A DNA stretch of 64,000 nucleotides. Origin: an uncultured Hyphomicrobiales bacterium. Lineage in GTDB: Bacteria; Bacteroidota; Ignavibacteria; Kapaibacteriales; UBA2268. The translations under genes were made by a program, and so were the position numbers. Positions 2,442 to 63,340 of this stretch are shown here, one piece after another (position 1 is the first letter of the stretch; the number at the start of each line of letters is the position of its first letter). The notes beneath the pieces were generated by a model. That model saw only the letters and a program-made list of their open reading frames with translations. It had not been told where the DNA came from and searched no databases. The DNA lies in assembly GCA_964634885.1 (NCBI GenBank), contig CAZWLN010000007.1, positions 1,008 to 65,007 of the forward strand. The letters run 5' to 3'.

Positions 2442-2688
2442 TAGAATTCCATCTATTTTTCACCCATACTCTATCACAATTTTTCCGTCGTTTCTAACAA
2501 AACGATAAACGGACTTTATTCAAATTTAATATCATTTTTTATTTATTGCTAATAGATATGAAATTAATTAAATTTAAAATGTACAATTTTTCCGGTTTTT
2601 TATTACAATGAAAGAAATTATTTGCGGAGTTTTCAGTCTATTACAATTTAATTGTAAGAGCAACAAGTATAATAAAGCGGAGGCTACA

Positions 2689-3537: not shown

Positions 3538-3583
3538 AGGATTTCAATTACTATGCACAGCACGGGATATTATTTGATTTTCA

Positions 3584-7382: not shown

Positions 7383-7778
7383 TTATTTCTGTGTACTCTT
7401 GGCTGCTTCAACCATAGCATCCATCAGCCGTTTGTAATTCTCCGCATTTTCGCCCTTGAATTTTCCCCTGCTGAGGAATGTGGAAAGGTTCTGGGCCGTT
7501 ACCAGGGGTATCTCGATGGCAATCTTGTCGTTTGCTTTCTTTTGTTCAGCCTGGGCTTTGTCGATGGCGCCTTTCAGGAAATTCTTGCACTCGAGGAAAG
7601 GATCGACTTCAGCGCCTAATATCTCTATCGTACCCATCATGTTATAGGCAAACACTATGTCTTCAAGCACGAAATTAGGCTTGATGATCATATTCTTCTG
7701 GGCGCTCTGTACCTGGGCCTGAACGGCAAGCGTAGTGAGTACAAAAGCAATTGACAGTATAGTAACAATTCTTTTCAT
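7383..7778 (-). CDS. Small secreted hypothetical protein (131 aa)
   Basis: Signal peptide 'MKRIVTILSIAFVLTTLAVQAQ' is followed by a charged helical body. No recognised motif. It lies co-directional with the downstream T9SS/par cluster. Confidence 0.45.
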   Translation of the reverse strand: MKRIVTILSIAFVLTTLAVQAQVQSAQKNMIIKPNFVLEDIVFAYNMMGTIEILGAEVDPFLECKNFLKGAIDKAQAEQKKANDKIAIEIPLVTAQNLSTFLSRGKFKGENAENYKRLMDAMVEAAKSTQK

Positions 7779-12407: not shown

Positions 12408-15400
12408 CTATCTTCCGCCTGCAATCGAGATCCTCAGGTCCAGGCCGAACTGCTGGACGTAGTATCCCGGCTGTGCGGCGCCTTCGTTGAAAGTGCCTTC
12501 GTAACGGTAGAACAGCGAAGCAACGACACGCTTGCTCATCGTGTAACGGATACGCGGCTCGACACTAATCTGCGTCGTACCGTTAAGAGTCCTTCCGTTA
12601 TCTCCGTTGTCGGCCGTCTCGTCGTTCTCGTCGAAAGTAACGTCGTAAGTCGCGGTTTTGTTTGCCTTCACCGACGCCGTCAGCGAGAATTCGATCTCGT
12701 TCTCAAGTTTCAGGCCGATGAGGTCCCACTCGAACTTCTTCTTGGCGTAGGAAGCCTGCAACTGGAATTCATCCGATGAACTCTTGGAAACTGTTGCCTT
12801 GTTCGAAGAGTTAAGGCTGTAGGAAGATGTGGTCGAGTACCTGAGGGTAGCAGACATTACACCGTCCATTTTATCTTCATTGAACGAAGCGTTAATTCCT
12901 ATCAGCGGCTGGAAGCCATACTGAACAGACTGTGCCTGGACTGTCTTTCCAAGCGAAGTGTACTCTATTCGTTCGAGGTAGGTGGAAGCGTACTTGTGTT
13001 CGAGGGACATTTTCTGGATAGTACCGCCCCAGATTCCCCACTTCTCGATGCCTTCCCATTTCAACTGCCAGTTGACGGCAGGCAGGAATTTGCCGATTTC
13101 GCCGCTGGAGAATGAAAAGGCTTCCATTCCTTCGGCAAAAGATTCTGAAAGAGCCTGGAGCATCTTCTGATTTCTCGTGGCTCCGGCGGAATCTGTCGCA
13201 ATGATCCGGGTCCTGCGCTGGCCGTAGAGTTCGAGTACATGTTCGATATTGTTGTTGAAGATGTTCAGGCCGAAGATGGACGGGAAAGTAAGGAATGTTT
13301 TATTATACGACTTCAATCCGATGGCATTAGTAAATGTCTGGTTACCCTGATCATCGGTTTCCGAATTGTACCTCTTCGTCCAGCTCAGCTCACTGCTCCA
13401 GTTCAGTTCCAGAGTAGCGCCCACCCACAAAGGCCTCGACGTTTTCAGGTCGAGCTTTGAACGCTGGGAAAAATTGTCCTGTAGAATGGCATTGGGGGGC
13501 CTTTTTCCCGGATAGGTCTCGAAGCCGAAGAACGGGAAATTGTCGCTGCCAACGACGCGGAAACCGCCGTGGGGGAATGTCACAAGGCCAAGCTGGTAAG
13601 CAGCGCTGGGTCCGTAAATGGCGTCGCTCGACCTGGCAGACCAGAAATTGGTCAGGCCGTTGCCGCCGAGGACTCCGGGATTGGTAGCGCTGTTTGACTG
13701 ATTAAAATTAATATCTATCTTTTCATAGTCCATGAATATGAATTTCAGGGCTTTGCCGATGGCGGGGAATATGCCGCTGCCGTTTGACCCGCTGCTGTCC
13801 TTCTGCCCCGGTTTGTGCGGAAGTCCCGGAGTAGCGGCGCTGGAGCCGAAGAGGTCGTCGCCGAGAGCTTTCAGCTTGATTGGCATATTGAACCTGACAG
13901 TGTTGTTAAAAGACGCCACTTTTACTACATCCCTGATGTCCGGATCTTCCTGAAGAGGGTCGGTCCAGTTATAGGATGTGTTGAAAGTGCCGGTCATATC
14001 GAAATACTTTTCGTAACGGCCGAGCGGAAGTTTGGGTTTCATGTTCAGGACAACAGTCTGCGTGTGATAGTTATCCCTTCCGAGGAAAAGGAATTTGCCG
14101 TTGTTGAAGAATACAACGTCTGCCAGTTGGCTGCCGGTACGCTGTTTACCCTCTTCGTTCAACTCGAAGGGAACGAGGGTGCTGAGGGTGTTCATCGAAT
14201 AGTCTATTGAAGGGTTGATGAAACCGTTTTCGGATATTCTCCATGTGAACTGTGCCGAACGGGTCGAGGAGAAATCCCTGATTACAGGCGAAGCCGATTC
14301 AAGGAACCGTGACTTCTCCGTTAAACGGCTTCTCGACATATCGAAATTCAAAGTCAGGTTTGTCGGCAGGAAATTAATTTTCTGCTTTTCATAGGTTCCA
14401 AGTATGAACGCATCCTTGGCCCAGGCAAATGGTTCCAGGGTCAGAAGCGGCGGAATCGTAACGTTATAGGCTACGCCCAGTTTCCATATCCAGTTGAACC
14501 GTTGTTCCACAATGGGGCTTCTCTCAAAGTTTTGAGAATAGGAATAATTGATTGTAACCTGGTTCAGAGTTTGTTTCATCCACCAGTCCTCCACCGGGAT
14601 GCCGAGCTTAATGCCTGTCAGGGCCCAATTGTCTGATACCTTGAGTGTTTGCGAAGGTTTCCTGATTGTGTCTTCGATGTAGGCCATTTCCGATTCGGTC
14701 AGTTTCCTGCCCAGCGCTTTTGATGCATTATACTGGGCAGTAGCAACGGCGGCATCGATACTGATGTCGCTGTTGGCAACGAACTGCGGGTCCTGTACCG
14801 ATTCGGTATGCGTCATCGTTATTGGTATCCTTGTCTGTTTAAATGCTTTCGGTAGGAATTTCTCGGCAGCAATCTGCCCCGTAATCGTCATGTCGTTAGT
14901 AGAGATCCTGTCCCCGAATTTTTCTTCCAGGCCGTGGAAATTGGGCTTCTTCATCGAGAAGCTCCCATTGAAGGTACCGATGTCGGCGAGCTTAAGCTCG
15001 CTGCTGACCCTCGCAGCCCAGTCCGTACTTTTCTCCGGGCTGATCAACCTTAACTCGTCAGCCCACATTGTTGTAGTAAGCTCATCGGGGTATTTGTCCG
15101 CAGGGTTGGCAATGCCGAGGCCGAAATACTGCACCTTTGTGAGTATAGGGTTCCCCTTGATTACATAGGTGATGGTATTATCATTGGGATCGGTGAACGA
15201 CTGCCGTTCATCTATTTTCGTAATATCTCTCGACTGTTTGTAGGACGTCAGTTCCGACAGAGTGATGTTGATGCTCTGCCAGCCGCGCAACAGGGGTTTC
15301 CGGAGTTCATAGTAATTGGAGGAGTCCACTCCGAACCTGATGAAAGCGTATGCTTTGGGTGTAATACCTGAAACGATATTGTCGGGCATGGAGCCGTCAC

Positions 15401-18400
15401 CGTGGAGAAATATCCTCATTTTCTTGTAGTAGAAAAGATCCATCGCCCTGAAGAACCGTACTGCCATTCTTTCCTCGCCATATCTCAGGTTCTGTACACT
15501 GACGGCGATGGACTGTTCGTTAAGCCTGATGTCCTTGGTGGGATCCGAACTGTTCAGCTGCCTTGGAGCTTTAACACCGGGAGGCATCCTGTAATATTCG
15601 GGAGCTTCATAGTTTTCTTCGACGTTAACGTAAGACACCTGGAGTACACTGTCGGATGAAGGTACATTGGCCTGCATATTGTTCTGGCGTAACCAGTGTG
15701 AGCCGGCAAGGCGCCAGTCAGCAATGGACACATTGGCGAGACCGCCCTTAAACCAGAGCCTTACGTATTGTATATTAGAATAGCTGGGACTGCCCACGCT
15801 TCTCGACGGTTTGCGGATTGGTATCCTGTACAGGAACCAGCCGTTGTTGCCGCCGCCGACGATCTGTGAGTTTGCTTCAGCGATAGGCTCCATATTGATT
15901 TCATATGAGAAATAGCTGTTTGTAAGCGACACTGTTTGTCCGTTGTTCTTGTTCAGCACCTCTGAGTCAGGGAACTGGCCGGTTTCTGCATATTTCGAAT
16001 TATTTTCATAATTGTTATATTTTGCGAAATCGCTTTCTTTCCTTTCGTCTGAGGCATTGAAATCGAAATAGTAATCGTCTTTGGCAGGGTCTTCCTCTTC
16101 GGCAAGAATGGCAGCTCCTTTACCACTATAATATGTTTTTTCTTCCGTATTATTTTGGTTGTCCAACCCCTCGTCTTCGCCAATGTCGATGATGTTATTA
16201 GGGAGAGGGTTGTTGGGAGTGCTGCCGTCTTCCGAATTGAGGGTCCCGTTTGCGATGACATCTTCGCTGATATACCCCAGGTCCATGAACATTTTTGTCT
16301 TACCGGGTTCCCAGGCGTTAACCTTCATCATGATTTCAATATATTCAATATTCTCATTGTCAAAATTGGTGTTGAACGATGACAGCAACCGCATCATGCC
16401 GCCCCAGATCTTATCCTGGTTTCTTTCAAAAAAGGGTTCCATCGCCATAGAATCATACTGGGGATTATCTTTATCAAGGTATTCGGGATTCTCATTGTAG
16501 ATGCCGCGCATATGAGGGTCGAATGAAATATACAATGGGCTGAGCATCTGGTTTGTTGCAAGCGTCTGCCTTTTGGGGTAAACTTCATTGATCCTGATGT
16601 TGGGAATGAAATACTGGTACCAGAAAGCCTTACCTTTGAGCTTTGTTGCGTTGGAATCCGTTTTAGCAATGCTGCTGTCAACAGGAGGCGATGAGTGAGA
16701 CCACTGAGTGGGCGTCAAGCCAAGAGATATGTATTTCTGTGCGCCTTCGAAGTCATCTACGTAAACGACAGGTTCGTTCAGGTCTTCAGAAACTTCAGAG
16801 TACCTTTTGTTTGGCTCGGGAATCATCATGGCCCATTCACCCTTCAGCGAGAAGGTGGATTTGACTTTTGTGTCGTAGAAAGGAAGTTTGTTGAGCGCTT
16901 CGGTAATCCAGGGCGCTTCATAGCGCAGGTTCCCGTCAAACCCCATCATGATGTTGGACACGGGTTCATCTCCAAGCCTGACCCTGTCCTGTATTACAGA
17001 CTGGTCATAGAACATGGCGGTAAATCCCAGGCCTGCCTGAACGTTTCGTTTTTTGATGAGTTCGTAGTCGGCTCTCAACCCAAGCATTGTACGGGTGGTG
17101 ATATTGAAGACGTCGTTGGCTTCATATTCAATCGTAACATTGGCGTTCGGCAGGGTTGCACGGGCGTTTCTCAGTGTAACGATGCCGGAATAGTAATCGA
17201 CAATATAGTCGTCATATTCTTTTAACGCCACACCGTCGAGCATTACCTTAACGCTTTTTTCTGCCAGGTTGATTGCACCGAGGGATATCCTGTTCGTAGC
17301 TTTGCCTGAGACCTGGCCGCTGATGATGAAATGGTCCTTGTTCGTATTCTTCTTAGCAGCGTCGTATGTTGTGTCATAAATATCGGGATAGGTATATTGG
17401 TCGGCAAGACTCTCGTTCTGCAATTTTTCCCTGAAATAGTCTCTGAGGCCCTGGTCAAAAGGCTCCAGTTCAGGAAAAGTAATTTCACCTCTTGCAGCGT
17501 CGAAGAACGGGTCTTTCAGGTCAAACTGGCCGTCGGGCGTCGTAGAGCCTGTGCTGTTGTTGATCTGGTCAACACGCATGATGGTAACCAGCTTGTCCTG
17601 GACGTTAGGCAGCAGGTCAGTAGAATCGTTAGACTTGTTAATATACCAGATGCCGACCTTCGTGTCGGTTACATTGACATTCGTAGCGTTGATGGAGTAT
17701 TTGTTTTTCATCTGCCTGTTCCACAGTATCCCGAAGGAAGGCTGAAGGTTGGGAACATAGAGCAGTTTAAGAGTAAGTTTCGCTTTTGCGTCAACGTCAG
17801 TCTGCAAGTCGCCGTAGAATTCGTTCTCGGTAGTACCTTTGATGCTGTAGGCAACGGCGTAATACCTGTCGGACCTGAGGTTGTTGATTGTCAGTGTTCC
17901 CAGGCTGGTATTGAGTTTGTAACGGTTTGTGTCCAATTTCATGAACTTTCCTTCGACGACGGCCCCGATTTGAAGTGTTCTTCCGGTAACAGACGCGTCG
18001 TAAGACTGGTTTCTTTTTCGGGAAGGCAGGTCGGCAATTGCTTTTGCATCTCTCGATATATCCGTTACAGTGTTTGTCGATTCCCAGACTTCAATTCCCT
18101 GGAGTACCTCCAGCGCCCTTGAAGAATCATCCGTAGGAATGATCGGGCTGGTACTCTTGAAATACTTCTTGTACACTTTCTTATAGTTAGAGTCCAGGAA
18201 GAAGTGGTTTCTGGCATAGTCGTAAGCCCTGATGGAAAACACCTGTGTGCTGACGCCGCCGGTAACCTTAACCGTCTTTTTTTCGCCTCTTCTTTGGGAA
18301 GCAATAGTTTTAAGGAAGAGCGGCCCGAACTGAAAATCGGCACGTACGCCGAAGAGCGCCTGGCCACCGCTGATGAGTCCCTGGAGAGGAAGCGAAACGT

Positions 18401-19280
18401 TACCGAGTTGTATCAGTTTGATGATGTCGTCGTCTTCGCCTTCATAGCCGATATTGAATTTATTTTCGTACTCAAACTGGCGGCGTGTGTTCCAGTCCGT
18501 ACCAAGCTTGAGCTTGTCGCCGATCTTGGCATCGACCCTGACCCTGATGTCCTGTGTAAAGACAGGCGTGGACTGTGTCTGGCCGAAAGCCGAAACAGTA
18601 CCGAGGTTCTGGCTGTCCCAGCGCCAGCCCAGGCGCAGCAGCACTTCACCGCTGACGTTGATGTTGATTTCCGGCTTGCCGAAGAGGCTCATTACGGGAT
18701 TGGGGGGGACAGGAATGGCAAACCCCGTTGCCTGTGCAAGCATTCGGGCGATATCACCGCCGGACAGCGCCTGTTTCAGGTCGTAACGGGTAAGTATCGA
18801 GTCCCATATCTCATTCCTGATCTTATCTTTCCTGAGTTCGAGATACCTGTCAAGGCCCAGGTCATAGGGATAGTTTACAATGTAGTTGCCGAATTTCTCT
18901 TCAACACGGTACGCCCTGCCGGTGGAATCAGCCGACACATCTACCCTGACACTGTCGGCGCTTGCACCGAACTTCTTGTCGCCTCTCGACGAGTTCGTCC
19001 TGTACCTGTCTGCCGGCGGCTTTGGTATCTGGAAGGCATCCCTCAGTGAGTCAATCTGGCTCACTGCGTCAAATATGGTATTGTAAACAGTAAGAGCTGA
19101 TGAGTACGTAAAAGGAAATCCGAAGAAGGCCTGCGACGTAACCAATGAACATGTATTTAGCAAGGAATTGTTTACTTTACTGTATGGCTGTACGAAGCCC
19201 ACAGGGGCTGCGTCCACTTCTGCCGCTATTGCAATGATGGCAATAGCAGCGGCTATGATATTTCTTACACTGCTGCTCAA
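12408..19280 (-). CDS. sprA: SprA/Sov-like type IX secretion translocon (2290 aa outer-membrane protein)
   Basis: A single 6.9-kb ORF whose N-terminal hydrophobic segment is consistent with export. The size is in the SprA range (~2300-2400 aa). The sequence is rich in Asn/Tyr/Gly and has a beta-barrel-like composition. T9SS cargo proteins and a PorV/Q-like gene lie nearby. Assigned by size and context, not by a verified motif. Confidence 0.65.
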   Translation of the reverse strand: MSSSVRNIIAAAIAIIAIAAEVDAAPVGFVQPYSKVNNSLLNTCSLVTSQAFFGFPFTYSSALTVYNTIFDAVSQIDSLRDAFQIPKPPADRYRTNSSRGDKKFGASADSVRVDVSADSTGRAYRVEEKFGNYIVNYPYDLGLDRYLELRKDKIRNEIWDSILTRYDLKQALSGGDIARMLAQATGFAIPVPPNPVMSLFGKPEININVSGEVLLRLGWRWDSQNLGTVSAFGQTQSTPVFTQDIRVRVDAKIGDKLKLGTDWNTRRQFEYENKFNIGYEGEDDDIIKLIQLGNVSLPLQGLISGGQALFGVRADFQFGPLFLKTIASQRRGEKKTVKVTGGVSTQVFSIRAYDYARNHFFLDSNYKKVYKKYFKSTSPIIPTDDSSRALEVLQGIEVWESTNTVTDISRDAKAIADLPSRKRNQSYDASVTGRTLQIGAVVEGKFMKLDTNRYKLNTSLGTLTINNLRSDRYYAVAYSIKGTTENEFYGDLQTDVDAKAKLTLKLLYVPNLQPSFGILWNRQMKNKYSINATNVNVTDTKVGIWYINKSNDSTDLLPNVQDKLVTIMRVDQINNSTGSTTPDGQFDLKDPFFDAARGEITFPELEPFDQGLRDYFREKLQNESLADQYTYPDIYDTTYDAAKKNTNKDHFIISGQVSGKATNRISLGAINLAEKSVKVMLDGVALKEYDDYIVDYYSGIVTLRNARATLPNANVTIEYEANDVFNITTRTMLGLRADYELIKKRNVQAGLGFTAMFYDQSVIQDRVRLGDEPVSNIMMGFDGNLRYEAPWITEALNKLPFYDTKVKSTFSLKGEWAMMIPEPNKRYSEVSEDLNEPVVYVDDFEGAQKYISLGLTPTQWSHSSPPVDSSIAKTDSNATKLKGKAFWYQYFIPNIRINEVYPKRQTLATNQMLSPLYISFDPHMRGIYNENPEYLDKDNPQYDSMAMEPFFERNQDKIWGGMMRLLSSFNTNFDNENIEYIEIMMKVNAWEPGKTKMFMDLGYISEDVIANGTLNSEDGSTPNNPLPNNIIDIGEDEGLDNQNNTEEKTYYSGKGAAILAEEEDPAKDDYYFDFNASDERKESDFAKYNNYENNSKYAETGQFPDSEVLNKNNGQTVSLTNSYFSYEINMEPIAEANSQIVGGGNNGWFLYRIPIRKPSRSVGSPSYSNIQYVRLWFKGGLANVSIADWRLAGSHWLRQNNMQANVPSSDSVLQVSYVNVEENYEAPEYYRMPPGVKAPRQLNSSDPTKDIRLNEQSIAVSVQNLRYGEERMAVRFFRAMDLFYYKKMRIFLHGDGSMPDNIVSGITPKAYAFIRFGVDSSNYYELRKPLLRGWQSINITLSELTSYKQSRDITKIDERQSFTDPNDNTITYVIKGNPILTKVQYFGLGIANPADKYPDELTTTMWADELRLISPEKSTDWAARVSSELKLADIGTFNGSFSMKKPNFHGLEEKFGDRISTNDMTITGQIAAEKFLPKAFKQTRIPITMTHTESVQDPQFVANSDISIDAAVATAQYNASKALGRKLTESEMAYIEDTIRKPSQTLKVSDNWALTGIKLGIPVEDWWMKQTLNQVTINYSYSQNFERSPIVEQRFNWIWKLGVAYNVTIPPLLTLEPFAWAKDAFILGTYEKQKINFLPTNLTLNFDMSRSRLTEKSRFLESASPVIRDFSSTRSAQFTWRISENGFINPSIDYSMNTLSTLVPFELNEEGKQRTGSQLADVVFFNNGKFLFLGRDNYHTQTVVLNMKPKLPLGRYEKYFDMTGTFNTSYNWTDPLQEDPDIRDVVKVASFNNTVRFNMPIKLKALGDDLFGSSAATPGLPHKPGQKDSSGSNGSGIFPAIGKALKFIFMDYEKIDINFNQSNSATNPGVLGGNGLTNFWSARSSDAIYGPSAAYQLGLVTFPHGGFRVVGSDNFPFFGFETYPGKRPPNAILQDNFSQRSKLDLKTSRPLWVGATLELNWSSELSWTKRYNSETDDQGNQTFTNAIGLKSYNKTFLTFPSIFGLNIFNNNIEHVLELYGQRRTRIIATDSAGATRNQKMLQALSESFAEGMEAFSFSSGEIGKFLPAVNWQLKWEGIEKWGIWGGTIQKMSLEHKYASTYLERIEYTSLGKTVQAQSVQYGFQPLIGINASFNEDKMDGVMSATLRYSTTSSYSLNSSNKATVSKSSSDEFQLQASYAKKKFEWDLIGLKLENEIEFSLTASVKANKTATYDVTFDENDETADNGDNGRTLNGTTQISVEPRIRYTMSKRVVASLFYRYEGTFNEGAAQPGYYVQQFGLDLRISIAGGR

Positions 19281-19796: not shown

Positions 19797-22700
19797 TTGT
19801 TACTGAAGAAAAACGCAATGACTATGAGGTTTCACAATATATCGGCTGTGTTATTGCTCTTGCTGGCAACAGCCTTCAATTCATACGGAAGGCCTTCCTC
19901 CGGAACCTGTTTCACGGAGAACAGGGGACAGGTAACGGATATGAACGGCGCTCCGGCTGACAATGTCCTTTACACCCTTGAATCCAGCAATGCCAAAGTC
20001 TATTTCGGAATCAACACCGTCAGCTATGTTTTCCGCAGGATTGCCCCTGTCGGTTCACCCCTGAAGACAATCCCGGGGAACATATTACCTGTGGAAAACG
20101 ACTCCGTCCTCGTCAACTATCACCGTATCGACCTTACATTCGAAGGCTCCCTGCCGGGAGTAACCGTCGAGCCATTGGAGCCTGCCGGCGGATACTGCAA
20201 TGTGTACAGCCCGAACCTGCCCGGCGGCGCCTGCTCCGTCAGGTCATTCAGGCGTCTCCGGTACAGGAATATATACCCCCATATCGATTTGGTTTTCTAT
20301 GTCAGCGCCGACAATAACATGAAATACGACATTATAGTCAATCCCGGGGGGAGTGTGTCTGACATAGCAATGACGTACAAAGGTCAGGAGGCTGTCGAAC
20401 TGCTGAAAGGCAACATCATCGTCAACTGCCCGCTTGGAACAGTAACAGAAATGAAACCATACACATACCAGCATCTTCCGGGCAGCGCCGTTACCGTGAA
20501 GAGTAATCCCACTGAAGTAACAGTTGCCAGCAGTTTCAATGTCAGCAACGGGAGCATCCGTTTCGACGTAGCCGGCTATGACAAATCAAGGGCGCTGGTA
20601 ATTGACCCTAATGTCACCTGGTCTTCATACTACGGCGGCATTGACCCCGATCACGGATACTCTGTGACTGTCAACGGCCTCAATGAAGTAATCCTCGTAG
20701 GAAGGACCATTAGCAGCAATTTCCCGGTTTCTCCCGGGGCTTACCAGAATAAAATTACCGGCTCCTACGACATGTACATCACTCGCATGAATTCCGACGG
20801 AGAGATCATCTGGACAACATTTTACGGCGGTACCGACAATGAATATGTAAACAATGTCTGCACAGACAAAGACTACAATATCATTGTCGGAGGCTGGACC
20901 TGGAGTACGGATTTCCCTGTTTCAGCCGGCGCTTACCAGACAAATTTTGCAGGGCCGGAAAATGACGTTGTAATAATGAAATTCGACTCAAGTGGAATGA
21001 GGCTCTGGAGTACATTCTTCGGCGGCGATAAAACAGAACACCTTTACGGCCTGGCCATCGACTCGGAGGACAACATCATTGCCACGGGATGGACAAACAG
21101 TAAAACCTTCTCCGAAGCTCCGTTCGCAACCTCTTTCAATTCATTCCAGAGGACAAACCAGGGAGTGGACGACGTTTACCTCCTGAAACTCAACCCTTCG
21201 GGCGGATATGTCTGGGGAACATTTTTCGGCGGAGACAGCACCGAGGAAGCAATGAGCCTTGCCGTCGGAGAGTTAGACAACATTTACATTACGGGTTCGA
21301 CCAAAAGTCCCGATTTCCCGCTTGCCGGCAATGTAATGTCCCCTTCATTGCAGGGCCTGAGGGACGCTTTCCTGGCACAGTTCGGGTCTTCCGGCAACCT
21401 GGTCTATTCTTCTTACTTCGGTTCCGACGACAATGATGAAGGAATGGGTATCTGCCTCGATCCGGATAATAATATATATATTACAGGCTATACGTACAGT
21501 AAGTCCTTTCCTGTTACAAAAGGCTGCATCCAGGACAGCCTTTCCGGCATTGCCGATGCATTCATAATGAAACTGAACAACGGCAAAATCGTACAATGGT
21601 CAACTTTCTACGGCAGCGACGAATATGATTATGCCTCGTCCATAGCTGCAGACAGAATTGGGAATTTCGCCATTACAGGCCAGACCTGGGGCAACGGCCT
21701 GCCGGTCTCCCCGGGCGCACTCTCCGATACGCTAAATGGAATTACCGACGCTTTCGCGTCCAAGTTCAATGCCGCTGACTGTTCGTTGATCTGGGGTTCA
21801 TACTACGGCGGTGAAAATGATGATATTGGTAGATACATTGCGGCAGACATATATGATAATTTCTATTCCACCGGCAGCACTTCCAGCCCGGACTTCCCGG
21901 CCATCGACCCTCCCCTCCAGGGTAATTACGGTGGCAATACGGACGCCTACCTGATGAAACACTGCCTGTCTGAGCCTGTCACAGAAATTACGCCTTCCGG
22001 CGCGCTCGAATTCTGCGAAGGCAACTTTGTCAGCCTCGACGGCGGCGAAGGTTTTGCTGCTTACCGCTGGTCAAACGGTTCTACCGACAGATTTGTCGAT
22101 ATTACTGAGTCCGGCGAATTCTATGTTACGGTGTGGGATGATAATTACTGCCGAGGAGTGTCGAAGCCGGTACGCGTTACCGTCCATCCCCTGCCCGACA
22201 TACAGATCTTAGGCAAACAGATGATCTGTCCCGGCGAATCCGGGGTACTGTCTTCGAACCATGATTACAAAAGCTATTCATGGTCAACGGGAGAAACGAC
22301 CAAACAGATAACGGTTGACAAAGAAAACATCTATGAGCTGACTGTAATCGACAGTTTCGGCTGCACAAGTACGACAAGCATTCTTGTTACATTCTACCCG
22401 GAAACATACTCTGAAGTTACCGGCCCGACCAAGGTTTACGTCAGCAATACGCAGAAAACATATTCAATTAAAAATACCAACGGCACGGATTTCACCTGGA
22501 CAATAGTAAACGGTACCTTACTGTCAGGCCAGAACTCCAAGAAAATCGACGTTAACTGGGACAGCAATGCCGACACAGGCTTCATCTATCTTAAAACAGA
22601 AAACATGAATACCGGTTGCATCTCCTATGACACGATCACTGTCGTTATCAGCCAGTTGTTTGTCCCGAAGATCACTACCAGCACCGGGATGTTCCATGTC

Positions 22701-24251
22701 TGTGAGGGCGACACGCTGGAACTGATTGCAGAAGAAGGCTTCAACAGGTATGAATGGTCAACCGGCGAAAAAACCCGCTCAATTAAAGTAACAGAGGAAG
22801 GCACATACTGGGTAAAAGTCTATGAGGACTATATATTGGTCGGCTTGAACACAACGGAAATTATTGTGGTACAAAAGCCCGCACCTGAGGTCATAGGCGA
22901 TAGTCTGCTTTGTTCTGCCGGTAAGGAAGTTCACTATTCAACGGCCGGTAACCCCATGAATATATATCAATGGTTTACAAAGACCGGTAATATCGTCTCC
23001 GGTGGGAATACACCCGATGTTACACTCAGTTGGGACAGAGGTGGATGGGATACGCTTACCGTGTCGGAAACTCTTGACAGTCTCGGATGTGAAGGATTGT
23101 CAAAGCCATTTTTTGTCTATATCGACACTACTCCTCCCGTAACCATTTCTCATGACAGGCCACTAACGTTCTGCTCCGGCGATTCGGTAATCCTCAGGAT
23201 TGCCGGCGACTATGCCGGCCTGCAATGGAATGACGGCAGCTCAGACGCCTGGCGTACCGTTAAAACATCCGGCAGGTACCTTATAAATGCGCTTAGCAGC
23301 CATGGCTGCCCTTCGGTTGACAGCGTAGATGTGAACGTAATCCCTTCACCCGGCAAACCTGTCATCGTCCAGGTGGACGACACCCTTTTCACTGGCGACT
23401 ATGCAGGATATAAATGGAAACTCAACGGCAGTCCGGTTTCAGGGGCTGCCGGAAAGAAATTTGTTCCCGAATCGGAAGATGTTTACACTGTCGAGGTCAA
23501 TAATGAATTCGGCTGCTCAGACGAATCCGATGCATTCAGTTTCAGGAAAATTACTGCCTATGCAGCTATTTCCATCAGGGCCACAGACCTGAACGACACC
23601 CTGTTCGGCGGTTCCAGCAGGCCGGTGAAAGCTTTGCTGTACCTCGACAGTTCTGCCAACCTGAATAAGTTTCATGCCGAACAATTTACGGCATACATCA
23701 GGTTCAATAAAACACTGCTGCTGCCGGAAGGAGACTTCGTCGGCGTCAGTGAAGACGACGAAGAGCGGGCCATCTTAATCAACGCCATTCGTAACCCGGC
23801 AACGACAGCCGGCATACTTCATGAAATCAATTTCACCGGAGCCCTCGGTGACACTGTCTGCGGTAAAATTTACCTCGATTCGGTGATATGGAAAACCGAC
23901 TCCAAAGTATGGGTCAAAACTACTGACGGCGTTTTCTGCCTGTCGGACTATTGCATAACCAACGGACACATCCGGCTGCTGCTCGTTAAGGAAGACCTGG
24001 TGTTTTACAATCTTCCCAACCCCTTCTCCGACATGACGGAAATTGTTTTCATCCTGAAAGAAAAGCAGCAGTGTAACGTTACGCTGTCTGACTGTTACGG
24101 TAAGCAGATTGCCGTAATCTGCGACGGCAACACGGAAGCAGGCGAGCACAGGAAATTCTTAAACACGGGGCAACTCGCCTCGGGCTTTTATTATATTACC
24201 CTGAGGACACCCACCCGTTTCAGTGTCCTGAAGGCTGAGATAATAAAGTAA
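19797..24251 (+). CDS. Giant T9SS cargo or adhesin. Domain order: signal peptide, SBBP-type beta-propeller repeats, multiple Cys-pair Ig-like domains, Por C-terminal sorting domain.
   Basis: Signal peptide 'AVLLLLLATAFNSYG'. The segment 'YGG.D...G....D....I..G.T.S.DFPV..GAYQ' recurs at least 8 times, which is SBBP beta-propeller-like. At least 7 ~90-aa modules are each bounded by a Cys pair ('FCEGNFVSL...YCRG', 'ICPGESGVL...GCTS'). The C-terminus 'YNLPNPFSDMTEIVFIL...GFYYITLRTPTRFSVLKAEIIK' matches the T9SS CTD consensus. Confidence 0.8.
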   Translation: MLLKKNAMTMRFHNISAVLLLLLATAFNSYGRPSSGTCFTENRGQVTDMNGAPADNVLYTLESSNAKVYFGINTVSYVFRRIAPVGSPLKTIPGNILPVENDSVLVNYHRIDLTFEGSLPGVTVEPLEPAGGYCNVYSPNLPGGACSVRSFRRLRYRNIYPHIDLVFYVSADNNMKYDIIVNPGGSVSDIAMTYKGQEAVELLKGNIIVNCPLGTVTEMKPYTYQHLPGSAVTVKSNPTEVTVASSFNVSNGSIRFDVAGYDKSRALVIDPNVTWSSYYGGIDPDHGYSVTVNGLNEVILVGRTISSNFPVSPGAYQNKITGSYDMYITRMNSDGEIIWTTFYGGTDNEYVNNVCTDKDYNIIVGGWTWSTDFPVSAGAYQTNFAGPENDVVIMKFDSSGMRLWSTFFGGDKTEHLYGLAIDSEDNIIATGWTNSKTFSEAPFATSFNSFQRTNQGVDDVYLLKLNPSGGYVWGTFFGGDSTEEAMSLAVGELDNIYITGSTKSPDFPLAGNVMSPSLQGLRDAFLAQFGSSGNLVYSSYFGSDDNDEGMGICLDPDNNIYITGYTYSKSFPVTKGCIQDSLSGIADAFIMKLNNGKIVQWSTFYGSDEYDYASSIAADRIGNFAITGQTWGNGLPVSPGALSDTLNGITDAFASKFNAADCSLIWGSYYGGENDDIGRYIAADIYDNFYSTGSTSSPDFPAIDPPLQGNYGGNTDAYLMKHCLSEPVTEITPSGALEFCEGNFVSLDGGEGFAAYRWSNGSTDRFVDITESGEFYVTVWDDNYCRGVSKPVRVTVHPLPDIQILGKQMICPGESGVLSSNHDYKSYSWSTGETTKQITVDKENIYELTVIDSFGCTSTTSILVTFYPETYSEVTGPTKVYVSNTQKTYSIKNTNGTDFTWTIVNGTLLSGQNSKKIDVNWDSNADTGFIYLKTENMNTGCISYDTITVVISQLFVPKITTSTGMFHVCEGDTLELIAEEGFNRYEWSTGEKTRSIKVTEEGTYWVKVYEDYILVGLNTTEIIVVQKPAPEVIGDSLLCSAGKEVHYSTAGNPMNIYQWFTKTGNIVSGGNTPDVTLSWDRGGWDTLTVSETLDSLGCEGLSKPFFVYIDTTPPVTISHDRPLTFCSGDSVILRIAGDYAGLQWNDGSSDAWRTVKTSGRYLINALSSHGCPSVDSVDVNVIPSPGKPVIVQVDDTLFTGDYAGYKWKLNGSPVSGAAGKKFVPESEDVYTVEVNNEFGCSDESDAFSFRKITAYAAISIRATDLNDTLFGGSSRPVKALLYLDSSANLNKFHAEQFTAYIRFNKTLLLPEGDFVGVSEDDEERAILINAIRNPATTAGILHEINFTGALGDTVCGKIYLDSVIWKTDSKVWVKTTDGVFCLSDYCITNGHIRLLLVKEDLVFYNLPNPFSDMTEIVFILKEKQQCNVTLSDCYGKQIAVICDGNTEAGEHRKFLNTGQLASGFYYITLRTPTRFSVLKAEIIK

Positions 24252-32854: not shown

Positions 32855-33712
32855 TTACGGCTGTGTTGTCAGTGAGAATGCACTGGGGTCAGCAGGATTG
32901 GGGCTGCCGGTGTAGTAGTAGTTTGATGCATCTTTAAATGTCAGATAGTCAACTTCAATGTAAACCGGGAAAGTATAGAAACCTTCGGATGCATCGGGAG
33001 AAGCCCAAACTGTACCGGGTGTCAAAGTGAACATGCCTTTACCCTGGCAAGCATTGCTGGGGCAGCACTCGGAGCATTTTACCCAAAATTCTTTGATAGC
33101 AGAATTTGATGCAAATTCGGGAGTAGTTGTAGGAACAACACTGCGGCCGCCACCGTAATTGTCGCCAATTTTGGGGCTGCTTGTGTTTGTGCCGAACATG
33201 CCCATTGTTCCGCTGAGAGCGAAGTTCTGGTTTGTCCACTGCTGGCCAGTGATGTTTGATAAATTACCGCCTTCGGGCTGGTATGTCCATGTCGAACCAG
33301 TGATAAATACGTTATTTGTCATCTGATCGTTGTTCTGTTCGTCGCATGCAAAAGCATTTGTTGCATTGCTGCCGGTAGCGCCGAATTTTGCATTGGCTTC
33401 AAAGGGCCAGCCGTTGCCGCCTGTAACTTTGAACTGCATGTTGTAAGCTGTACCGAGGTCTTTGGCGCCGTCGGGGTTCAACCAGCCAAGGTAAATGTTG
33501 CCGGTAACGTTTGTGATGTCGATCTGGCAGATAACGAATATTTTGTATTCGCCTGTTGCATTGTCAAATGAATAGTCATTTGCTTCGATCTTGCCGTTTG
33601 TTAAGTTGTCGTCTGCATTCCAGGGGCCTGTCTTGCTGGCGGAAGGTTCTACAGCAAATGCAAATGATGCTGTAAGGAGGAGAGCTGCAAAAATTGCAAA
33701 GAATTTCTTCAT
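32855..33712 (-). CDS. Secreted hypothetical protein (~285 aa), Gly/Asn/Thr-rich with a C-terminal Cys cluster
   Basis: Signal peptide 'MKKFFAIFAALLLTASFAFA'. No recognised catalytic motif. Cys-rich segment 'KCSECCPSNACQGKGMF'. An internal Met was chosen as the start on the basis of the signal peptide. Confidence 0.5.
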   Translation of the reverse strand: MKKFFAIFAALLLTASFAFAVEPSASKTGPWNADDNLTNGKIEANDYSFDNATGEYKIFVICQIDITNVTGNIYLGWLNPDGAKDLGTAYNMQFKVTGGNGWPFEANAKFGATGSNATNAFACDEQNNDQMTNNVFITGSTWTYQPEGGNLSNITGQQWTNQNFALSGTMGMFGTNTSSPKIGDNYGGGRSVVPTTTPEFASNSAIKEFWVKCSECCPSNACQGKGMFTLTPGTVWASPDASEGFYTFPVYIEVDYLTFKDASNYYYTGSPNPADPSAFSLTTQP

Positions 33713-33774
33713 GATAAACTCCAAAAAATTATAAAAAAACAATAATTAAAACATAAACACTGAGAAAAAATTTA

Positions 33775-50701: not shown

Positions 50702-52534
50702 ATGACAAAGCGAATACTATACTTGTTTTTAATACTTCAACTATATTCCTGCGAATATCCTCTTGACGAACTGGAAAATTCCGGAGCAATTAAACCGGAT
50801 AAGCCCCCGGTAATCGAGTTAGGAAAGAATTTCACCGGCGACACGATTTATCTGTACAAGGGACTGTCCGTAAACCTCGAGTTTAAGGCCGACTCTGCTA
50901 TCGATGTATCAGGTTATACCTTAATACTCGATGACGACACCATATCTAAGAGTAATTATTCTTTCAGTCTTATTAATTATTATATTGAAAACGGTACAGG
51001 TAGCCCAAAAGGCCAACTGAGCCTGGGAATACACAAATTACAAGTCAATGTTTACTCTCATTCATCTTCAGGTTCCATAGCCGACGGAATGGGACTTGAA
51101 AGATATTTTTACACATATTTCTGGTATGTCAACATCAGGGATTTTCCTAATTTCCTTCATTTCAGGACGGATACTACTTCCAATGTCCTGAAGCTATGTT
51201 GGGATAAATATACCCCTCCCGATTTTAAAGCTTACCTGTTTAATTCGTTCTGGGAGACACAAAACAATTGGATTCAAGAATCCATATTAGATATTAATAA
51301 AGTCTGTATGGAAGATTCAGCTTATGTCGGCTACCCCACGTATTATTATTTTGACGTTAAAAGCAGTTGCGGTAACATAAGAATCGGCAGCATTACTGCC
51401 TCTTGGTCATTGCCTTCATTCAATAAAATCACTTATGAAGACCAGAAATACTATTTAAACTGGAATGACAGCAAATACCAGCACTTGATCAGCGAATACC
51501 ATATATTCACAAACTCTGGTAAGAAGACAGTTGTCAAAGATCCAAACTGCAGGAAATTCAATATTACTGACGTCGGATTCCTTACAGGCTCAAAGTATTG
51601 GGTTCTGCCTCTCTCCAGGTACGACAACAACAGAACGAATTTCTCTAAGTACCTCCGGCCTGAAAGCCTTGCGTGCAAAACAGACCTGGGCGAAAAATAC
51701 GGTTCCGGGTACAGTTACTGCGGTAAGGCTGCCAATGGTAACTTCTGTTTTAAAATCAGCGATGAAAACAAATGTGCAATATATAATCCTACCCAGGGGA
51801 AAGTAGTAAAAACATTAAATTATATATTCCAGTCTTTTTCTCCCAACGGCAGATATGGAGTTTTCTGTTCGGTTGAAAGCCAGATGTATTATATCATCTG
51901 CGTTTATGACCTGATTAATGATAATATGGTGTACAAACTGAAAACCCTTGACATTCTCGATACTAATATTTCCGTCAACTTTAAAATATCCGATAACCTC
52001 ATCGGTGTGCTAAGTTTTGGCAACAACCTTGTTGCATACGATTTCAAAGAAAAGAAAATATTAGCAAGTAAGCAATACTACAGCAAAATATGGGGTATAG
52101 CAGTATCTTCCGGAGGAAAGTATTTCTATATCGACAGCGAAAGCGAAAATGAGATCGATTGCATTCAAAACGGCAGCTTTGTTAAGAAGTATAATCTTAA
52201 CGACAAGGGATGCCTGTTCAATCCTGAATCTGAAGATGAAATTGTTTATTCGGTAGCTGACGAAAATAAATATATACTTATGAACCTTGACAACGGTAAT
52301 AAAAAGACATTGCTTACCGGAAATGGTCTCCTGGATATTGATTTCTACAATGAGCAATATGTCATTTATAGTGTCGGTTATCTTAGTGTATGGAATTTTA
52401 ATAACATAAAATTATTTGACATCAAGACATCGCTCGATTTAAGTTTTGGCCTGGTAAATACCGGATTGGCCCTGAACAACAAAATTCTTCTTCACAAGAA
52501 TGGATACTTACTTGATATGAGGAGCTTCTATTGA
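50702..52534 (+). CDS. Hypothetical lipoprotein (610 aa), AT-rich gene, no recognised domain
   Basis: Lipoprotein signal 'MTKRILYLFLILQLYSCEYP' (lipobox L-Y-S-C). The body is Asn/Tyr/Ser-rich. The stop overlaps the start of the next gene (ATGA-type coupling at 52531-52534). Confidence 0.5.
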   Translation: MTKRILYLFLILQLYSCEYPLDELENSGAIKPDKPPVIELGKNFTGDTIYLYKGLSVNLEFKADSAIDVSGYTLILDDDTISKSNYSFSLINYYIENGTGSPKGQLSLGIHKLQVNVYSHSSSGSIADGMGLERYFYTYFWYVNIRDFPNFLHFRTDTTSNVLKLCWDKYTPPDFKAYLFNSFWETQNNWIQESILDINKVCMEDSAYVGYPTYYYFDVKSSCGNIRIGSITASWSLPSFNKITYEDQKYYLNWNDSKYQHLISEYHIFTNSGKKTVVKDPNCRKFNITDVGFLTGSKYWVLPLSRYDNNRTNFSKYLRPESLACKTDLGEKYGSGYSYCGKAANGNFCFKISDENKCAIYNPTQGKVVKTLNYIFQSFSPNGRYGVFCSVESQMYYIICVYDLINDNMVYKLKTLDILDTNISVNFKISDNLIGVLSFGNNLVAYDFKEKKILASKQYYSKIWGIAVSSGGKYFYIDSESENEIDCIQNGSFVKKYNLNDKGCLFNPESEDEIVYSVADENKYILMNLDNGNKKTLLTGNGLLDIDFYNEQYVIYSVGYLSVWNFNNIKLFDIKTSLDLSFGLVNTGLALNNKILLHKNGYLLDMRSFY

Positions 52535-61064: not shown

Positions 61065-61469
61065 ATGAAACTTAAACCTGTCTCAAAATTCAATAATCAC
61101 GAGGAATATATTGCCCTTCAGTGCGAACCGGCACAAAGCATGCTGAAGCAGGTACGGGAGGCTGTTAAGGCAATCATTCCCGATGCGGAAGAAGTCATCA
61201 GCTATCAGATGCCTGCTTTTCGTCTTCGCACCATCATTGTCTGGTACGCCGCCTTTACGAACCACATCGGCTTCTACCCTACTGCTTCGGGCATTGAGGC
61301 TTTCAAAGATGAACTGGCTCCGTACAAAAGCTCTAAAGGCGCAGTACAGTTCCCCTTTGGCAAGCCCCTCCCACTCGAGCTCATCAGCCGAATCGTCCGC
61401 TTCCGGGTGGAGGAAGAACAGGGGAAAGGAAAAACCAAAAAACTAATTAATCAACCATCCAAACAATAA
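61065..61469 (+). CDS. DUF1801 (YdhG-like) domain protein. Its 3' end is rewritten by the insertion of the downstream cassette.
   Basis: 'YQMPAFRLRTIIVWYAAFTNHIGFYP' and 'KGAVQFPFGKPLPLELISRIVRFRVEE' fit DUF1801. The present C-terminus '...VEEEQGKGKTKKLINQPSKQ' reads across a direct repeat into AT-rich DNA. A second copy of the repeat, 1.77 kb downstream, would encode '...VEEELGKGKK*'. Confidence 0.7.
   Translation: MKLKPVSKFNNHEEYIALQCEPAQSMLKQVREAVKAIIPDAEEVISYQMPAFRLRTIIVWYAAFTNHIGFYPTASGIEAFKDELAPYKSSKGAVQFPFGKPLPLELISRIVRFRVEEEQGKGKTKKLINQPSKQ
61395..61436. repeat. Left copy of a ~42-bp imperfect direct repeat ('gtccgcttccgggtggaggaagaacaggggaaaggaaaaacc') flanking the AT-rich cassette
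   Basis: It matches 63204-63245 ('gtccggttccgggtggaggaagaactgggaaaaggaaagaag') at roughly 37 of 42 positions. Confidence 0.85.
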
Positions 61470-61535
61470 ACTGATTATTTCGTTAAATATATTATATTTG
61501 TTTGTTTTATTATGATAAATGTAATTGAAAGAAAT

Positions 61536-62258
61536 ATGAAATTACCAAAGAAAATCAGCAAATGTCCCATAATTGATGCGGTAATTGAAATACGATTCGA
61601 ATCAAGTATAAATTCGAATGCCATATTCGGAATAATATATAGTTGTTTACAGGCAGAGTATCCAAAAGTCGAGACACTGCCAATTCTCCAGGTTCCGGAA
61701 CCTTTACGTGAGAATGACCCGGTCTTCAAATATAAACCTCATTATAAGATTTCAGATGATCAATATACAATACAAATCGGATCCGATGTAATTGCTTTTG
61801 GATCAGTGATTCCATATCCGGGTTGGACTGAATTTAGTAGAAAGTTCCAAAGTAATTTTGATAACATATTAAAAACAGGTATTATTCATAAGGTAATCAG
61901 ATTAGGTGTAAGATATATTAATTATTTTGACAATAACATTTTCGATAATGTTATATTGGAATTTAAATCTACCGACAATATTCTGAATCTGCCAACCGGC
62001 AATACAGTCATTCGGACAGATGTACCCTGCAATTCCTATACATCTACATTGCAAATTACTAACAATGCTAAAATTGATCCCGAAAATGAAATTGTTGGTT
62101 CATTAATCGATATTGATACTTTCAAAATATATCAGGACATGTCCTTTTTGAATTCCTACAAATCTGAGATTCAGAATGCACATAATATTGAAAAAGAACT
62201 GTTTTTTAGTATTCTTAAGCAGGATTATATAAATTCATTAGAGCCCGTATATGAGTAA
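61536..62258 (+). CDS. Cassette gene A: hypothetical protein (~241 aa), AT-rich, first gene of a coupled three-gene operon. It is possibly related to the 'sporadically distributed' TIGR04255-type proteins.
   Basis: ORF in the track (start chosen at 'MKLPKK'). The N-terminus 'CPIIDAVIEIRFES' resembles the remembered TIGR04255 N-terminal motif (P-I-x-E-A-V-x-E-I-R-F); this is low-confidence and from memory. The stop overlaps the gene B start by 8 nt. Confidence 0.5.
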   Translation: MKLPKKISKCPIIDAVIEIRFESSINSNAIFGIIYSCLQAEYPKVETLPILQVPEPLRENDPVFKYKPHYKISDDQYTIQIGSDVIAFGSVIPYPGWTEFSRKFQSNFDNILKTGIIHKVIRLGVRYINYFDNNIFDNVILEFKSTDNILNLPTGNTVIRTDVPCNSYTSTLQITNNAKIDPENEIVGSLIDIDTFKIYQDMSFLNSYKSEIQNAHNIEKELFFSILKQDYINSLEPVYE

Positions 62259-62565
62259 TACTAACCTAACAAAGAATTTTTTACCTTTTATATTGATTGG
62301 GTCTTCATTAATGAACTTCCAATATGATAACGGCAGTACTATTACAGGCTCCAGCCATTCACTTACTCCATCAATTATTGCTAATTATAAGAATTTAACT
62401 ACCAGCAAATATGAAATAAATACCAATGTGATTGCCAAACAGTTAAGTAATATGGATCAAGCCAGAGTATTTTCCGATTTTATTGCGCAAATCATTACAC
62501 AATCAATTGATATTGATGAATCGGTTCAGAAAGTAATAAATGACAATTTCTGGGATTTGCTATGA
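62251..62565 (+). CDS. Cassette gene B: hypothetical small protein (104 aa)
   Basis: ORF with start and stop overlapping its neighbours (8-nt overlap with gene A, ATGA overlap with gene C). One hydrophobic stretch 'FLPFILIGSSLMNF'. No recognised motif. Confidence 0.45.
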   Translation: MSNTNLTKNFLPFILIGSSLMNFQYDNGSTITGSSHSLTPSIIANYKNLTTSKYEINTNVIAKQLSNMDQARVFSDFIAQIITQSIDIDESVQKVINDNFWDLL

Positions 62566-63188
62566 ATCTTGATGACATTAAGGACTTTTTACCAAAATAT
62601 CTCACTCCCGCTTCAACAGAAGAACTATATAAAGGACTTAATCAATTCCCGGATAATATTTCGAAAATGAATTTCTATACCTCATATTTAAAGAATGATC
62701 CTATAATCTACCAGGGCGATTGTATAAAAGATATGATTGTTGTTAATTTGCCTGCCACCCAAAAAAAAGAGGTGCCTGCAATCATTATTTCTAACACTTG
62801 CGATGCCGATCTTAACAATTCAAGGAATTATCAATCTCATTTGGTTTATTCGCCAATTATTAATCTGAATTCTTTTAAACAAACGTTATTAGTTTCTGGT
62901 CTATTGCCTGAAAAGGTTGATGAATTAATTTACAACATTAAAAAACAAAGAATTACATCAATATTTTACCTGCCTAAATATGATCCCTCATTTGATGAAT
63001 CGATAATATTTTTCGATCGAATTTATAATATTGGGAATACATATATAAATAGAAACGACTTGAATAAGATACGGATTTTCTCATTAAGTAATTATGGCCA
63101 TTATTTATTTCTAATTAAGTTTTCTATGCATTATACGCGTTTCAATGAAAAAGTCGATAGGAAGTCGTTCAATCAACAGCAATACTGA
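62562..63188 (+). CDS. Cassette gene C: hypothetical protein (208 aa)
   Basis: ORF translationally coupled to gene B (ATGA). No recognised catalytic motif. It ends 15 bp before the right direct repeat. Confidence 0.5.
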   Translation: MNLDDIKDFLPKYLTPASTEELYKGLNQFPDNISKMNFYTSYLKNDPIIYQGDCIKDMIVVNLPATQKKEVPAIIISNTCDADLNNSRNYQSHLVYSPIINLNSFKQTLLVSGLLPEKVDELIYNIKKQRITSIFYLPKYDPSFDESIIFFDRIYNIGNTYINRNDLNKIRIFSLSNYGHYLFLIKFSMHYTRFNEKVDRKSFNQQQY

Positions 63189-63203
63189 TAATTACATTTA
63201 CAG

Positions 63204-63245
63204 TCCGGTTCCGGGTGGAGGAAGAACTGGGAAAAGGAAAGAAGT
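63204..63245. repeat. Right copy of the direct repeat flanking the cassette. It carries the displaced original 3' end (encoding ...VEEELGKGKK, then a stop) of the DUF1801 gene.
   Basis: See 61395-61436. Translating through this copy gives 'R V E E E L G K G K K *'. Confidence 0.85.
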
Positions 63246-63340
63246 GACAGAAGGCTATCCAATTAGTAATATCAAAGTTCACCATTAGACAATATAACCG
63301 TATATCTTCCCGTTAAATAGTATTTTTTGTTGGAATTTTA

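Follow-up and report, generated by a model that had tools for sequence, protein, structure and literature searches.

A candidate mobile toxin–antitoxin-type module of three coupled genes led by a TIGR04255 protein in a 64-kb bacterial contig segment

Tripartite toxin–antitoxin (TA) systems with a promiscuous accessory protein are already known as a concept. In toxin–antitoxin–chaperone (TAC) systems, represented by HigBA-SecB of M. tuberculosis and by HigBAC and CmdTAC of E. coli, the accessory protein is a chaperone, the systems are engaged in phage defence and the accessory component serves as a sensor (PMC5105189; PMC6377645; bioRxiv 10.1101/2024.02.24.581848; PMC11618068). The chaperone recognises a hydrophobic and aromatic chaperone addiction domain (ChAD) of the antitoxin, phage proteins compete with this recognition, and both chaperones and TA units can be swapped (PMC5105189; bioRxiv 10.1101/2024.02.24.581848). 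In the Panacea systems one conserved domain (PanA, DUF4065) is combined with many unrelated toxin partners (PMC8832971), while the domains of RnlA that resemble the TATA-binding protein (TBP) help to bind substrate in a phage-defence TA system (PMC8266594). Here we describe an operon of three genes, A, B and C, located near the end of a 64,000-nucleotide stretch of contig CAZWLN010000007.1 (assembly GCA_964634885.1, positions 1,008 to 65,007 of the forward strand), which is called the window below. We assign a probability of about 60% to its reading as a mobile, self-contained tripartite module of the TA type, in which C would be the toxin, B the antitoxin and A a conserved third component.

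The lead gene A (61536–62258, forward strand) encodes a 240-aa protein of the TIGR04255 family, for which a TBP-like pseudo-dimeric alpha/beta saddle is predicted. Gene B (62251–62565, forward strand) codes for an acidic protein of 104 aa with an isoelectric point (pI) of 4.7, which its charge, conservation and a domain swap described below mark as a putative antitoxin or adaptor, and gene C (62562–63188, forward strand) for a putative toxin of 208 aa with a predicted MazF/Kid/CcdB fold. The trio spans 1.65 kb; the stop of A and the start of B share 8 nt (ATGAGTAA), and B and C share the tetranucleotide ATGA. The same open reading frames (ORFs) and overlaps had been given in the initial annotation of this DNA as three coupled genes. 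A second in-frame ATG at 61512 would extend A to 248 aa, but the start at 61536 was preferred because A homologues begin at the MxLPKxI motif. Within 61450–63200 the GC content is 0.27–0.33 (about 30%) against 0.41–0.56 (about 47%) in the flanks, which confirms the earlier impression that the operon is foreign by composition. The association of the three genes is more than chance, since 153 homologues of C and 211 of A were found (both counts refer to a collection clustered at 90%) and the same order and overlaps are repeated in dozens of unrelated loci.

The operon is preceded by an AT-rich leader of 103 nt (61433–61535, forward strand), of which only 66 bp (61470–61535) are private upstream DNA, somewhat less than the promoter region of about 100 bp that had been credited to it. 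A match to the Bacteroidetes-type −7 box, TATATTTG, lies at 61493–61500, 36 nt ahead of the A start; being a match to a motif that is unenriched in the window overall, it is only suggestive. A sigma-70 promoter scan stayed at background level with no excess, and no intrinsic terminator or terminator-like site was found after C.

Evidence for the TA-type reading comes first from the gene that stands in the third position. We collected 80 genome loci on the basis of A, of which 77 are assessable, i.e. not cut by a contig end; they come from Bacteroidota, Planctomycetota, Spirochaetota, Desulfobacterota, Nitrospirota, Legionellales, Actinomycetota and others. In 61 of the 77 a hidden Markov model of the C family matches an ORF about 300 nt past the A stop, and, taken from the other side, all seven sampled contigs with a C homologue carry an A homologue and a gene of about 100 aa directly upstream, in neighbourhoods that are otherwise unrelated. 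In the remaining loci both ORFs behind A, the middle one and the third, are of other kinds. Pfam identifies the third protein of locus L054 as a PemK/MazF toxin (29 bits, cut-off 23.1) and that of locus L079 as a RelE toxin (35.7 bits, cut-off 27), and the A homologues ahead of the variant third genes are close ones (250–277 bits). Because the PemK and RelE toxins stand there behind close A homologues, the third position can be regarded as a toxin slot.

Other occupants of this slot are less easily named. In seven loci it is taken by a protein of 180–188 aa, designated C', with Q-G-D and S-Q-x-C-D motifs; comparison of C with C' by hhalign gave little signal (E 0.0015, probability 17%), yet three motifs, QGD, S-x-x-CD and P, are aligned between them, and C' may be a homologue of C. 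Four near-identical cassettes (L086–L089) consist of A, a middle protein of 208–212 aa and a third protein of 148 aa bearing a DTGA motif. Its assignment as an aspartyl protease was dropped, as it was based on this retropepsin-like motif and on Pfam E-values of 0.06–0.09, which are not significant. The bins containing these four cassettes are assigned to Nanoarchaeota, Proteobacteria and Deltaproteobacteria, and their likeness suggests either a mobile element or virus common to them or an error of binning. No family was recognised for the third genes of L074, L071 and L065; for the first of them a by-eye guess of a HicA-like protein was not confirmed. Broken genes are also distributed unevenly, as C is fragmented next to an intact A in three loci (L022, L030 and L068) and A is fragmented next to an intact C in one (L004); this asymmetry would count in favour of the TA-type reading.

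Protein B gave no match in Pfam, NCBIfam, PADLOC or PHROG, and a word-index homology search returned only B itself; its homologues were gathered by their position in the loci and then aligned. A positional homologue was found in every locus. The mean normalised similarity within this family is 0.43 over the last 35 residues, 0.12 over the first 35 and 0.07 in between, the C-terminal segment of about 35 aa (...DIDESVQKVINDNFWDLL) being as conserved as A and C. Its consensus reads ..I..F...L..NS.DID.E...IVN.NFWDLI, with F, W and L at positions −5, −4 and −2 in 85–89% of sequences. The whole family is acidic (mean pI 4.5), with a net charge of −4 over the last 35 residues. At the other end, 89% of the middle proteins, across all cassette types, have their most hydrophobic 13-mer among the first 30 residues (median position 12); this segment is rich in Ser, Thr and Ala, e.g. 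LVILATLSSSVVS, and with its approximately 13–17 residues it looks, by eye, too short for a membrane span.

The two ends of B seem to have different partners. In the B proteins of L081, a C-type cassette, and L091, a C'-type cassette, residues 1–76 are homologous (43% identity, E 1e-23), while the last 30 or so are unrelated. Across 64 C-type cassettes the similarity of B N-termini gives a partial Spearman correlation of 0.48 with that of A and of 0.26 with that of C, a result reached by 14 of 300 permutations. The swap and the covariation together support, moderately, an N-terminus paired with A and a C-terminus paired with the toxin. In the window the layout is that of TA systems, i.e. a small acidic gene stands directly ahead of the third gene and overlaps it by ATGA, and it is likely that B and C are a toxin–antitoxin pair with a MazF-fold toxin. 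In such a pair B would be a labile antitoxin, the C-terminal 35 or so residues of which, with their acidic stretch and the aromatic end of the F-W-D-L motif, would bind and neutralise C, by analogy with the acidic, Trp-containing tail of MazE that blocks MazF. The N-terminal segment of B, hydrophobic and rich in Ser and Thr, may dock on A.

As for C, its predicted structure belongs to the MazF/Kid/CcdB superfamily, i.e. to the toxin fold with an SH3-like barrel, and thus the statement of the initial annotation that none of the three proteins shows anything that can be placed does not hold for this one. The barrel is supplemented with an N-terminal helical region (residues 1–50) and a helical insert (102–127). 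None of the 153 homologues, of about 200 aa each, is annotated; their invariant residues are Q51, S77, N78, C80, D81, P98, P138, L175, K186, H190, R193 and R200. C also matches phrog_4575 (9.6e-44), the function of which is given as unknown in PHROG, and it has no match in NCBIfam. A PDB sequence-profile search with C returned no MazF among its matches; BstYI, which did appear there with an E-value of 0.31, was dismissed as noise. In this reading C, with its MazF/CcdB-fold core, would be a toxin that probably arrests growth; RNase activity is plausible, while C may also poison gyrase, as CcdB does, or act in some other way.

The identity of A had been suggested from the segment PIIDAVIEIRF, and NCBIfam bears this out with a full-length match to TIGR04255 (133.2 bits against a cut-off of 30, E 1.4e-38, profile positions 1–251 of 252). 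An exhaustive profile search found 4,195 clusters of this family at 50% identity, 1,047 of them at E ≤ 1e-30, nearly all being stand-alone proteins of about 240 aa. A also matches phrog_5464 (3.9e-31), again with function unknown in PHROG, has no Pfam match at E ≤ 1 and, like B and C, matches no PADLOC-DB v2.0.0 model at E ≤ 1, which answers a check proposed in the initial annotation. A match to AAC(6') in the PDB sequence-profile search (E 0.22) was rejected as noise. The structure of A is predicted with high scores (pLDDT 93.7, pTM 0.89) and consists of two similar halves, each made of strands followed by a long helix; the modelled protein is a TBP-like saddle, not a SecB-like one. Residues invariant in the family alignment include E18, R20, R122, R126, D192, D194, H216, E219 and K220, and their spacing of i, i+2 or i+4 on neighbouring strands implies that they all lie on the same side of the sheet.

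A protein of this shape could be a separate DNA-binding autorepressor that sits with its saddle on the promoter of the operon and spares B the need for a DNA-binding domain of its own, as omega and PaaR do. This is a minor possibility, since the similarity to TBP is low (TM-scores 0.26–0.36), A is acidic to neutral (pI 5.1 in the window, family mean 6.0) and has several Asp and Glu among its invariant residues, unlike a DNA-binding saddle, the covariation of the B N-terminal region with A suggests contact between proteins, and no conserved repeat resembling an operator was seen in the leader of 66 bp. Within the TA-type reading, A would rather be a conserved third component reused with many toxin/antitoxin "warheads". 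It would most likely stabilise or control B and may be the sensor of the trigger, as SecB-like chaperones are in TAC systems; C would then be freed by loss or titration of A. This specific chaperone or sensor role of A is proposed tentatively.

That the trio is a unit of its own is also seen from the way it is set into the chromosome. Upstream of the leader lies a gene of the DUF1801 family (PF08818; 61065–61469, forward strand; Pfam E 9.2e-16), which was delimited by gene calling and reading of the sequence and the 3' end of which is the insertion target. The cassette is bracketed by an imperfect direct repeat of 38 nt (35 of 38 identical), which had been missed before; a repeat search places its left copy at 61395–61432 and its right copy at 63203–63240, and its score of 29 compares with at most 11 in 20 shuffles. 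The left copy represents the 3' end of the DUF1801 gene, whose present C-terminus (...EEEQGKGKTKKLINQPSKQ and a stop) continues into cassette DNA. Read codon by codon, the right copy with 7 further nucleotides (63203–63247, forward strand) looks like the displaced original end of this ORF, encoding VRFRVEEELGKGKK and a stop. The pair of repeats and this reading of DUF1801 therefore point to an insertion of about 1.8 kb, containing only A, B, C and the 103-nt leader, at the end of a housekeeping gene. The uninterrupted 3' end is expected to show the junction ...CGAATCGTCCGSTTCCGGGTGGAGGAAGAACWGGGRAAAGGAAAGAAGTGA, and a search for such an empty site in metagenome contigs gave 0 matches. Close to both inner ends of the cassette there is also a 9-nt inverted repeat, AATGTAATT at 61520–61528 and AATTACATT at 63190–63198, which may well be due to chance in DNA of 30% GC.

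Significant direct repeats 1.85–2.15 kb apart enclose the cassette in three other loci. In L069 they are 20 nt long (5707–5726 and 7707–7726) and correspond to the 3' end of tRNA-Glu (5655–5730), in L066 they are exact over 23 nt (5746–5768 and 7896–7918), the repeat lying just after tRNA-Met (5652–5726), and in L078 they have 26 nt (5862–5887 and 7709–7734). The repeats differ in sequence between loci, and no recombinase lies between them in the window or in any of these three. The three genes thus behave as a mini-island. It may move with the help of an integrase acting in trans or by Campbell-type recombination of a looped-out circle, or the addictive module may have survived as what is left of decayed islands.

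Larger mobile elements accommodate the trio as well. Two temperate Pseudomonas phages contain full trios with the 8-nt A/B overlap preserved: in Dobby (MK034952, L093), a phiCTX-like phage without ctx (PMC7454045), A (1090–1854), B (1847–2176) and C (2187–2786) adjoin the portal gene in a cos-proximal position, and in VW-6S (MF975720, in the coordinates of L094) A (2436–3188), B (3181–3498) and C (3501–4097) lie between the cI repressor and int. The cos-proximal/portal region is an anti-phage hotspot of P2-like phages (Rousset et al., PMC9122126), to which Dobby belongs. These positions in prophage hotspots support a defence role, and the cassette would probably serve abortive-infection or other anti-phage defence and/or addiction of the carrier DNA. 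The GenBank records of both phages render the trio incompletely: in Dobby A is annotated from 1483 only, with 123 aa instead of 254, while the VW-6S record shortens A and gives the label 'XerC integrase' to an ORF of 46 aa within B.

In bacterial genomes the trio was found in an element with integrase, excisionase, Rep and MutH–Dcm genes (L003), in a block resembling a prophage (L007), beside a DDE transposase on an Acidobacteria contig (L009) and amid housekeeping genes (L005 and L011). Directly 3' of the trio in L003, the segment 8621–14215 carries genes for a MutH-like endonuclease, a Dcm-type methylase, Rep (REP_ORF2-G2P), an HTH_17 excisionase-like protein and a tyrosine integrase, and it is a small integrative element with a restriction–modification (RM) system beside the cassette. 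Among 148 nearest neighbours Pfam recognised 4 Phage_integrase, 4 ResIII, 3 SWI2_SNF2, 2 HsdR_N, 3 AAA_21 and 3 HTH_3 domains, and PADLOC gave a few matches to type I restriction endonucleases, methyltransferases, mad, PbeA and AriA. Neighbourhoods as scattered as these are expected for TA modules, and the signal of defence and mobility among the neighbours is modest. The neighbourhood check proposed at the outset was thus answered in part, by a few RM genes, the four integrases and the phage hotspots, with an association to defence islands that is only modest.

The same neighbourhoods bear on the first proposal made for this locus, a novel defence or toxin-immunity module. Its general sense, that of a conflict system of toxin or defence type, agrees with our data. 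In its other sense the operon would encode a secreted polymorphic toxin and an immunity protein for competition between bacteria, for which a small variable protein beside a conserved effector-like one and a swappable third gene could be cited. We regard this as very improbable: no gene of a type VI or type VII secretion system, of contact-dependent inhibition or of Rhs is present among the listed families of the sampled neighbourhoods, C has, by eye, no apparent signal peptide and no toxin-delivery domain (no predictor was run), the immunity gene normally follows the toxin, while here the small gene precedes it, and PemK and RelE are intracellular TA toxins. The data favour a TA architecture inside the cell, to which one more conserved component is added.

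In the window itself the surroundings of the cassette are ordinary. Ten ORFs sampled elsewhere in it gave Pfam matches to serine hydroxymethyltransferase, YkuD, enoyl reductase, Kup, an AhpC-like protein, radical SAM, tetratricopeptide repeats and DUF1801, two being without a match, and RsgA and an alpha/beta hydrolase are encoded just upstream on the window's own contig. Since the sampled ORFs are mostly housekeeping genes, with no integrase or transposase among them, and no tRNA is present in the window, the "integrative-looking scaffold" of the initial annotation had to be given up; neither was an integrase or transposase seen among the genes called in about 10 kb upstream of the cassette. 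The window also contains two very long ORFs, one of 2290 aa (12408–19280, reverse strand) and one of 1484 aa (19797–24251, forward strand), and two ORFs without a Pfam match at E ≤ 1e-5 (50702–52534, forward strand, 610 aa; 32855–33742, reverse strand, 295 aa).

Several observations weigh against the tripartite TA-type reading. That C is toxic, that B neutralises it, that A contacts B, what A does and that the operon has a defence phenotype are all things that we infer. C has no Pfam match to PemK/MazF (PF02452) at E ≤ 1 and thus stays outside this family by profile; an hhalign comparison of the C family with an alignment of canonical MazF and Kid sequences and the L054 protein gave a probability of 0.4%, and the positions equivalent to the catalytic R25 and T48 of B. 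subtilis MazF are, by eye, unconserved in the C alignment. Because profile similarity to PemK/MazF is lacking and the invariant residues lie, by eye, off the catalytic Arg/Thr of MazF, the fold alone is no proof that C is toxic. In the case of B, neither it nor the other middle proteins matched known antitoxin domains, the N-terminal hydrophobic segment is absent in the variants L061/L063/L070/L075, L065 and L074, the statistics by which the B N-terminus follows A are moderate (approximately p 0.05), and the similarity of B C-termini in C-type cassettes tracks A (0.45) and C (0.39) about equally. In L004 A is broken and C intact. On this Rhodohalobacter contig three ORFs (6864–7449) take the place of A, and C (8001–8612) keeps all invariant residues, which reflects either assembly frameshifts or the possibility that A is lost and C is kept. 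Finally, the invariant charged residues of A look more like a specific ligand or catalytic site than a generic chaperone surface, and the nearest neighbours that remain after those listed above are assorted housekeeping genes.

Two further explanations have to be considered against these data. The trio may still be a toxin module in which A is no passive partner but enzymatically modifies B, C or some cellular or phage ligand, as in type VII-like TA systems or a sensor enzyme; we consider this rather unlikely. Alternatively, C may be a benign binder of nucleic acid or protein that has the MazF fold simply as an SH3-like barrel, and the trio an accessory, non-conflict set of genes that became mobile incidentally. 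The lack of a sequence-level link between C and PemK, the failure to identify MazF catalytic residues in C and the mostly housekeeping neighbours would all agree with it. We nevertheless find it improbable, since Pfam-confirmed PemK and RelE fill the same slot behind close A homologues, the trio occurs in accessory/defence hotspots of phages, its cross-phylum distribution is sporadic and accompanied by flanking repeats, and B is acidic and fast-evolving.

If the tripartite TA-type reading is true, it would provide a role for the large orphan family TIGR04255, with its 4,195 clusters and phrog_5464, and for the C family of about 200 aa (phrog_4575). It would also add a new candidate phage sensor and a clade of MazF-fold toxins with different conserved residues. 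The existence of a recombinase-less, repeat-flanked mini-island bears on how TA cassettes spread. The system is easily testable, because the trio is only 1.65 kb long and is present in the cultured temperate phages Dobby and VW-6S at classic defence hotspots. In its most extended form the proposal would make TIGR04255 a second, non-SecB class of platform for swappable TA warheads, in which A holds the antitoxin by its N-terminal hydrophobic segment, senses phage and upon infection frees a toxin of the new MazF-fold family (or PemK, RelE and others), the entire unit moving as a recombinase-less mini-island into 3' ends of tRNA or protein genes; taken as a whole, this chain of assumptions is possible but rather doubtful.

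Neither TIGR04255 nor its InterPro names (IPR026349, CHP04255), phrog_5464 or phrog_4575 is mentioned in the literature searched, most subscription journals being outside the search, and comparison has to be made with systems of other composition. The type II TA systems MazEF, Kis-Kid (PemIK) and CcdAB differ from the present operon in several respects: C is without PF02452 profile similarity, is twice the size and has a helical extension and an insert; its invariant set is another one (S-N-T-C-D, and K/H/R on the last helix); B has no AbrB or ribbon–helix–helix DNA-binding domain, and a third gene is obligatory here. The order of accessory gene, antitoxin and toxin, with an antitoxin devoid of its own DNA-binding domain, is shared with the three-component type II systems omega-epsilon-zeta and paaR-paaA-parE, but their regulators are small ribbon–helix–helix or helix–turn–helix proteins, whereas A is a TBP-like protein of 240 aa, acidic to neutral. 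With RnlA/LsoA the operon has in common the TBP-like fold in a TA or anti-phage setting; in those proteins, however, the domains of this fold are part of one chain with a HEPN RNase toxin, while A is stand-alone and has no detectable sequence relation to them. As in Panacea, one conserved family, TIGR04255, precedes at least five kinds of third gene, yet PanA is itself the antitoxin of two-gene systems, and here a variable middle protein stands between A and the toxin.

The likeness to TAC systems concerns the general plan. In both cases there are three genes, the toxin/antitoxin units vary while the accessory protein is conserved, and the antitoxin has a short, aggregation-prone hydrophobic or aromatic segment recognised by the accessory protein, although for B the docking on A is what we infer. 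The differences concern its execution: A is TBP-like and not SecB-like, it is the first gene, whereas the TAC accessory gene is the last, the hydrophobic segment of B is N-terminal, while the ChAD is a C-terminal extension, and the C-terminus of B is instead the part specific for the toxin type. What appears to be new, as far as PADLOC and the literature searched show, is the TIGR04255 platform, this clade of MazF-fold proteins and this family of putative antitoxins, along with the leading position of the accessory gene and the N-terminal placement of the docking segment. The operon would then be the second case, if the TA-type reading is correct, of a conserved accessory protein with a swappable TA warhead, an arrangement so far represented only by the SecB-type TAC systems.

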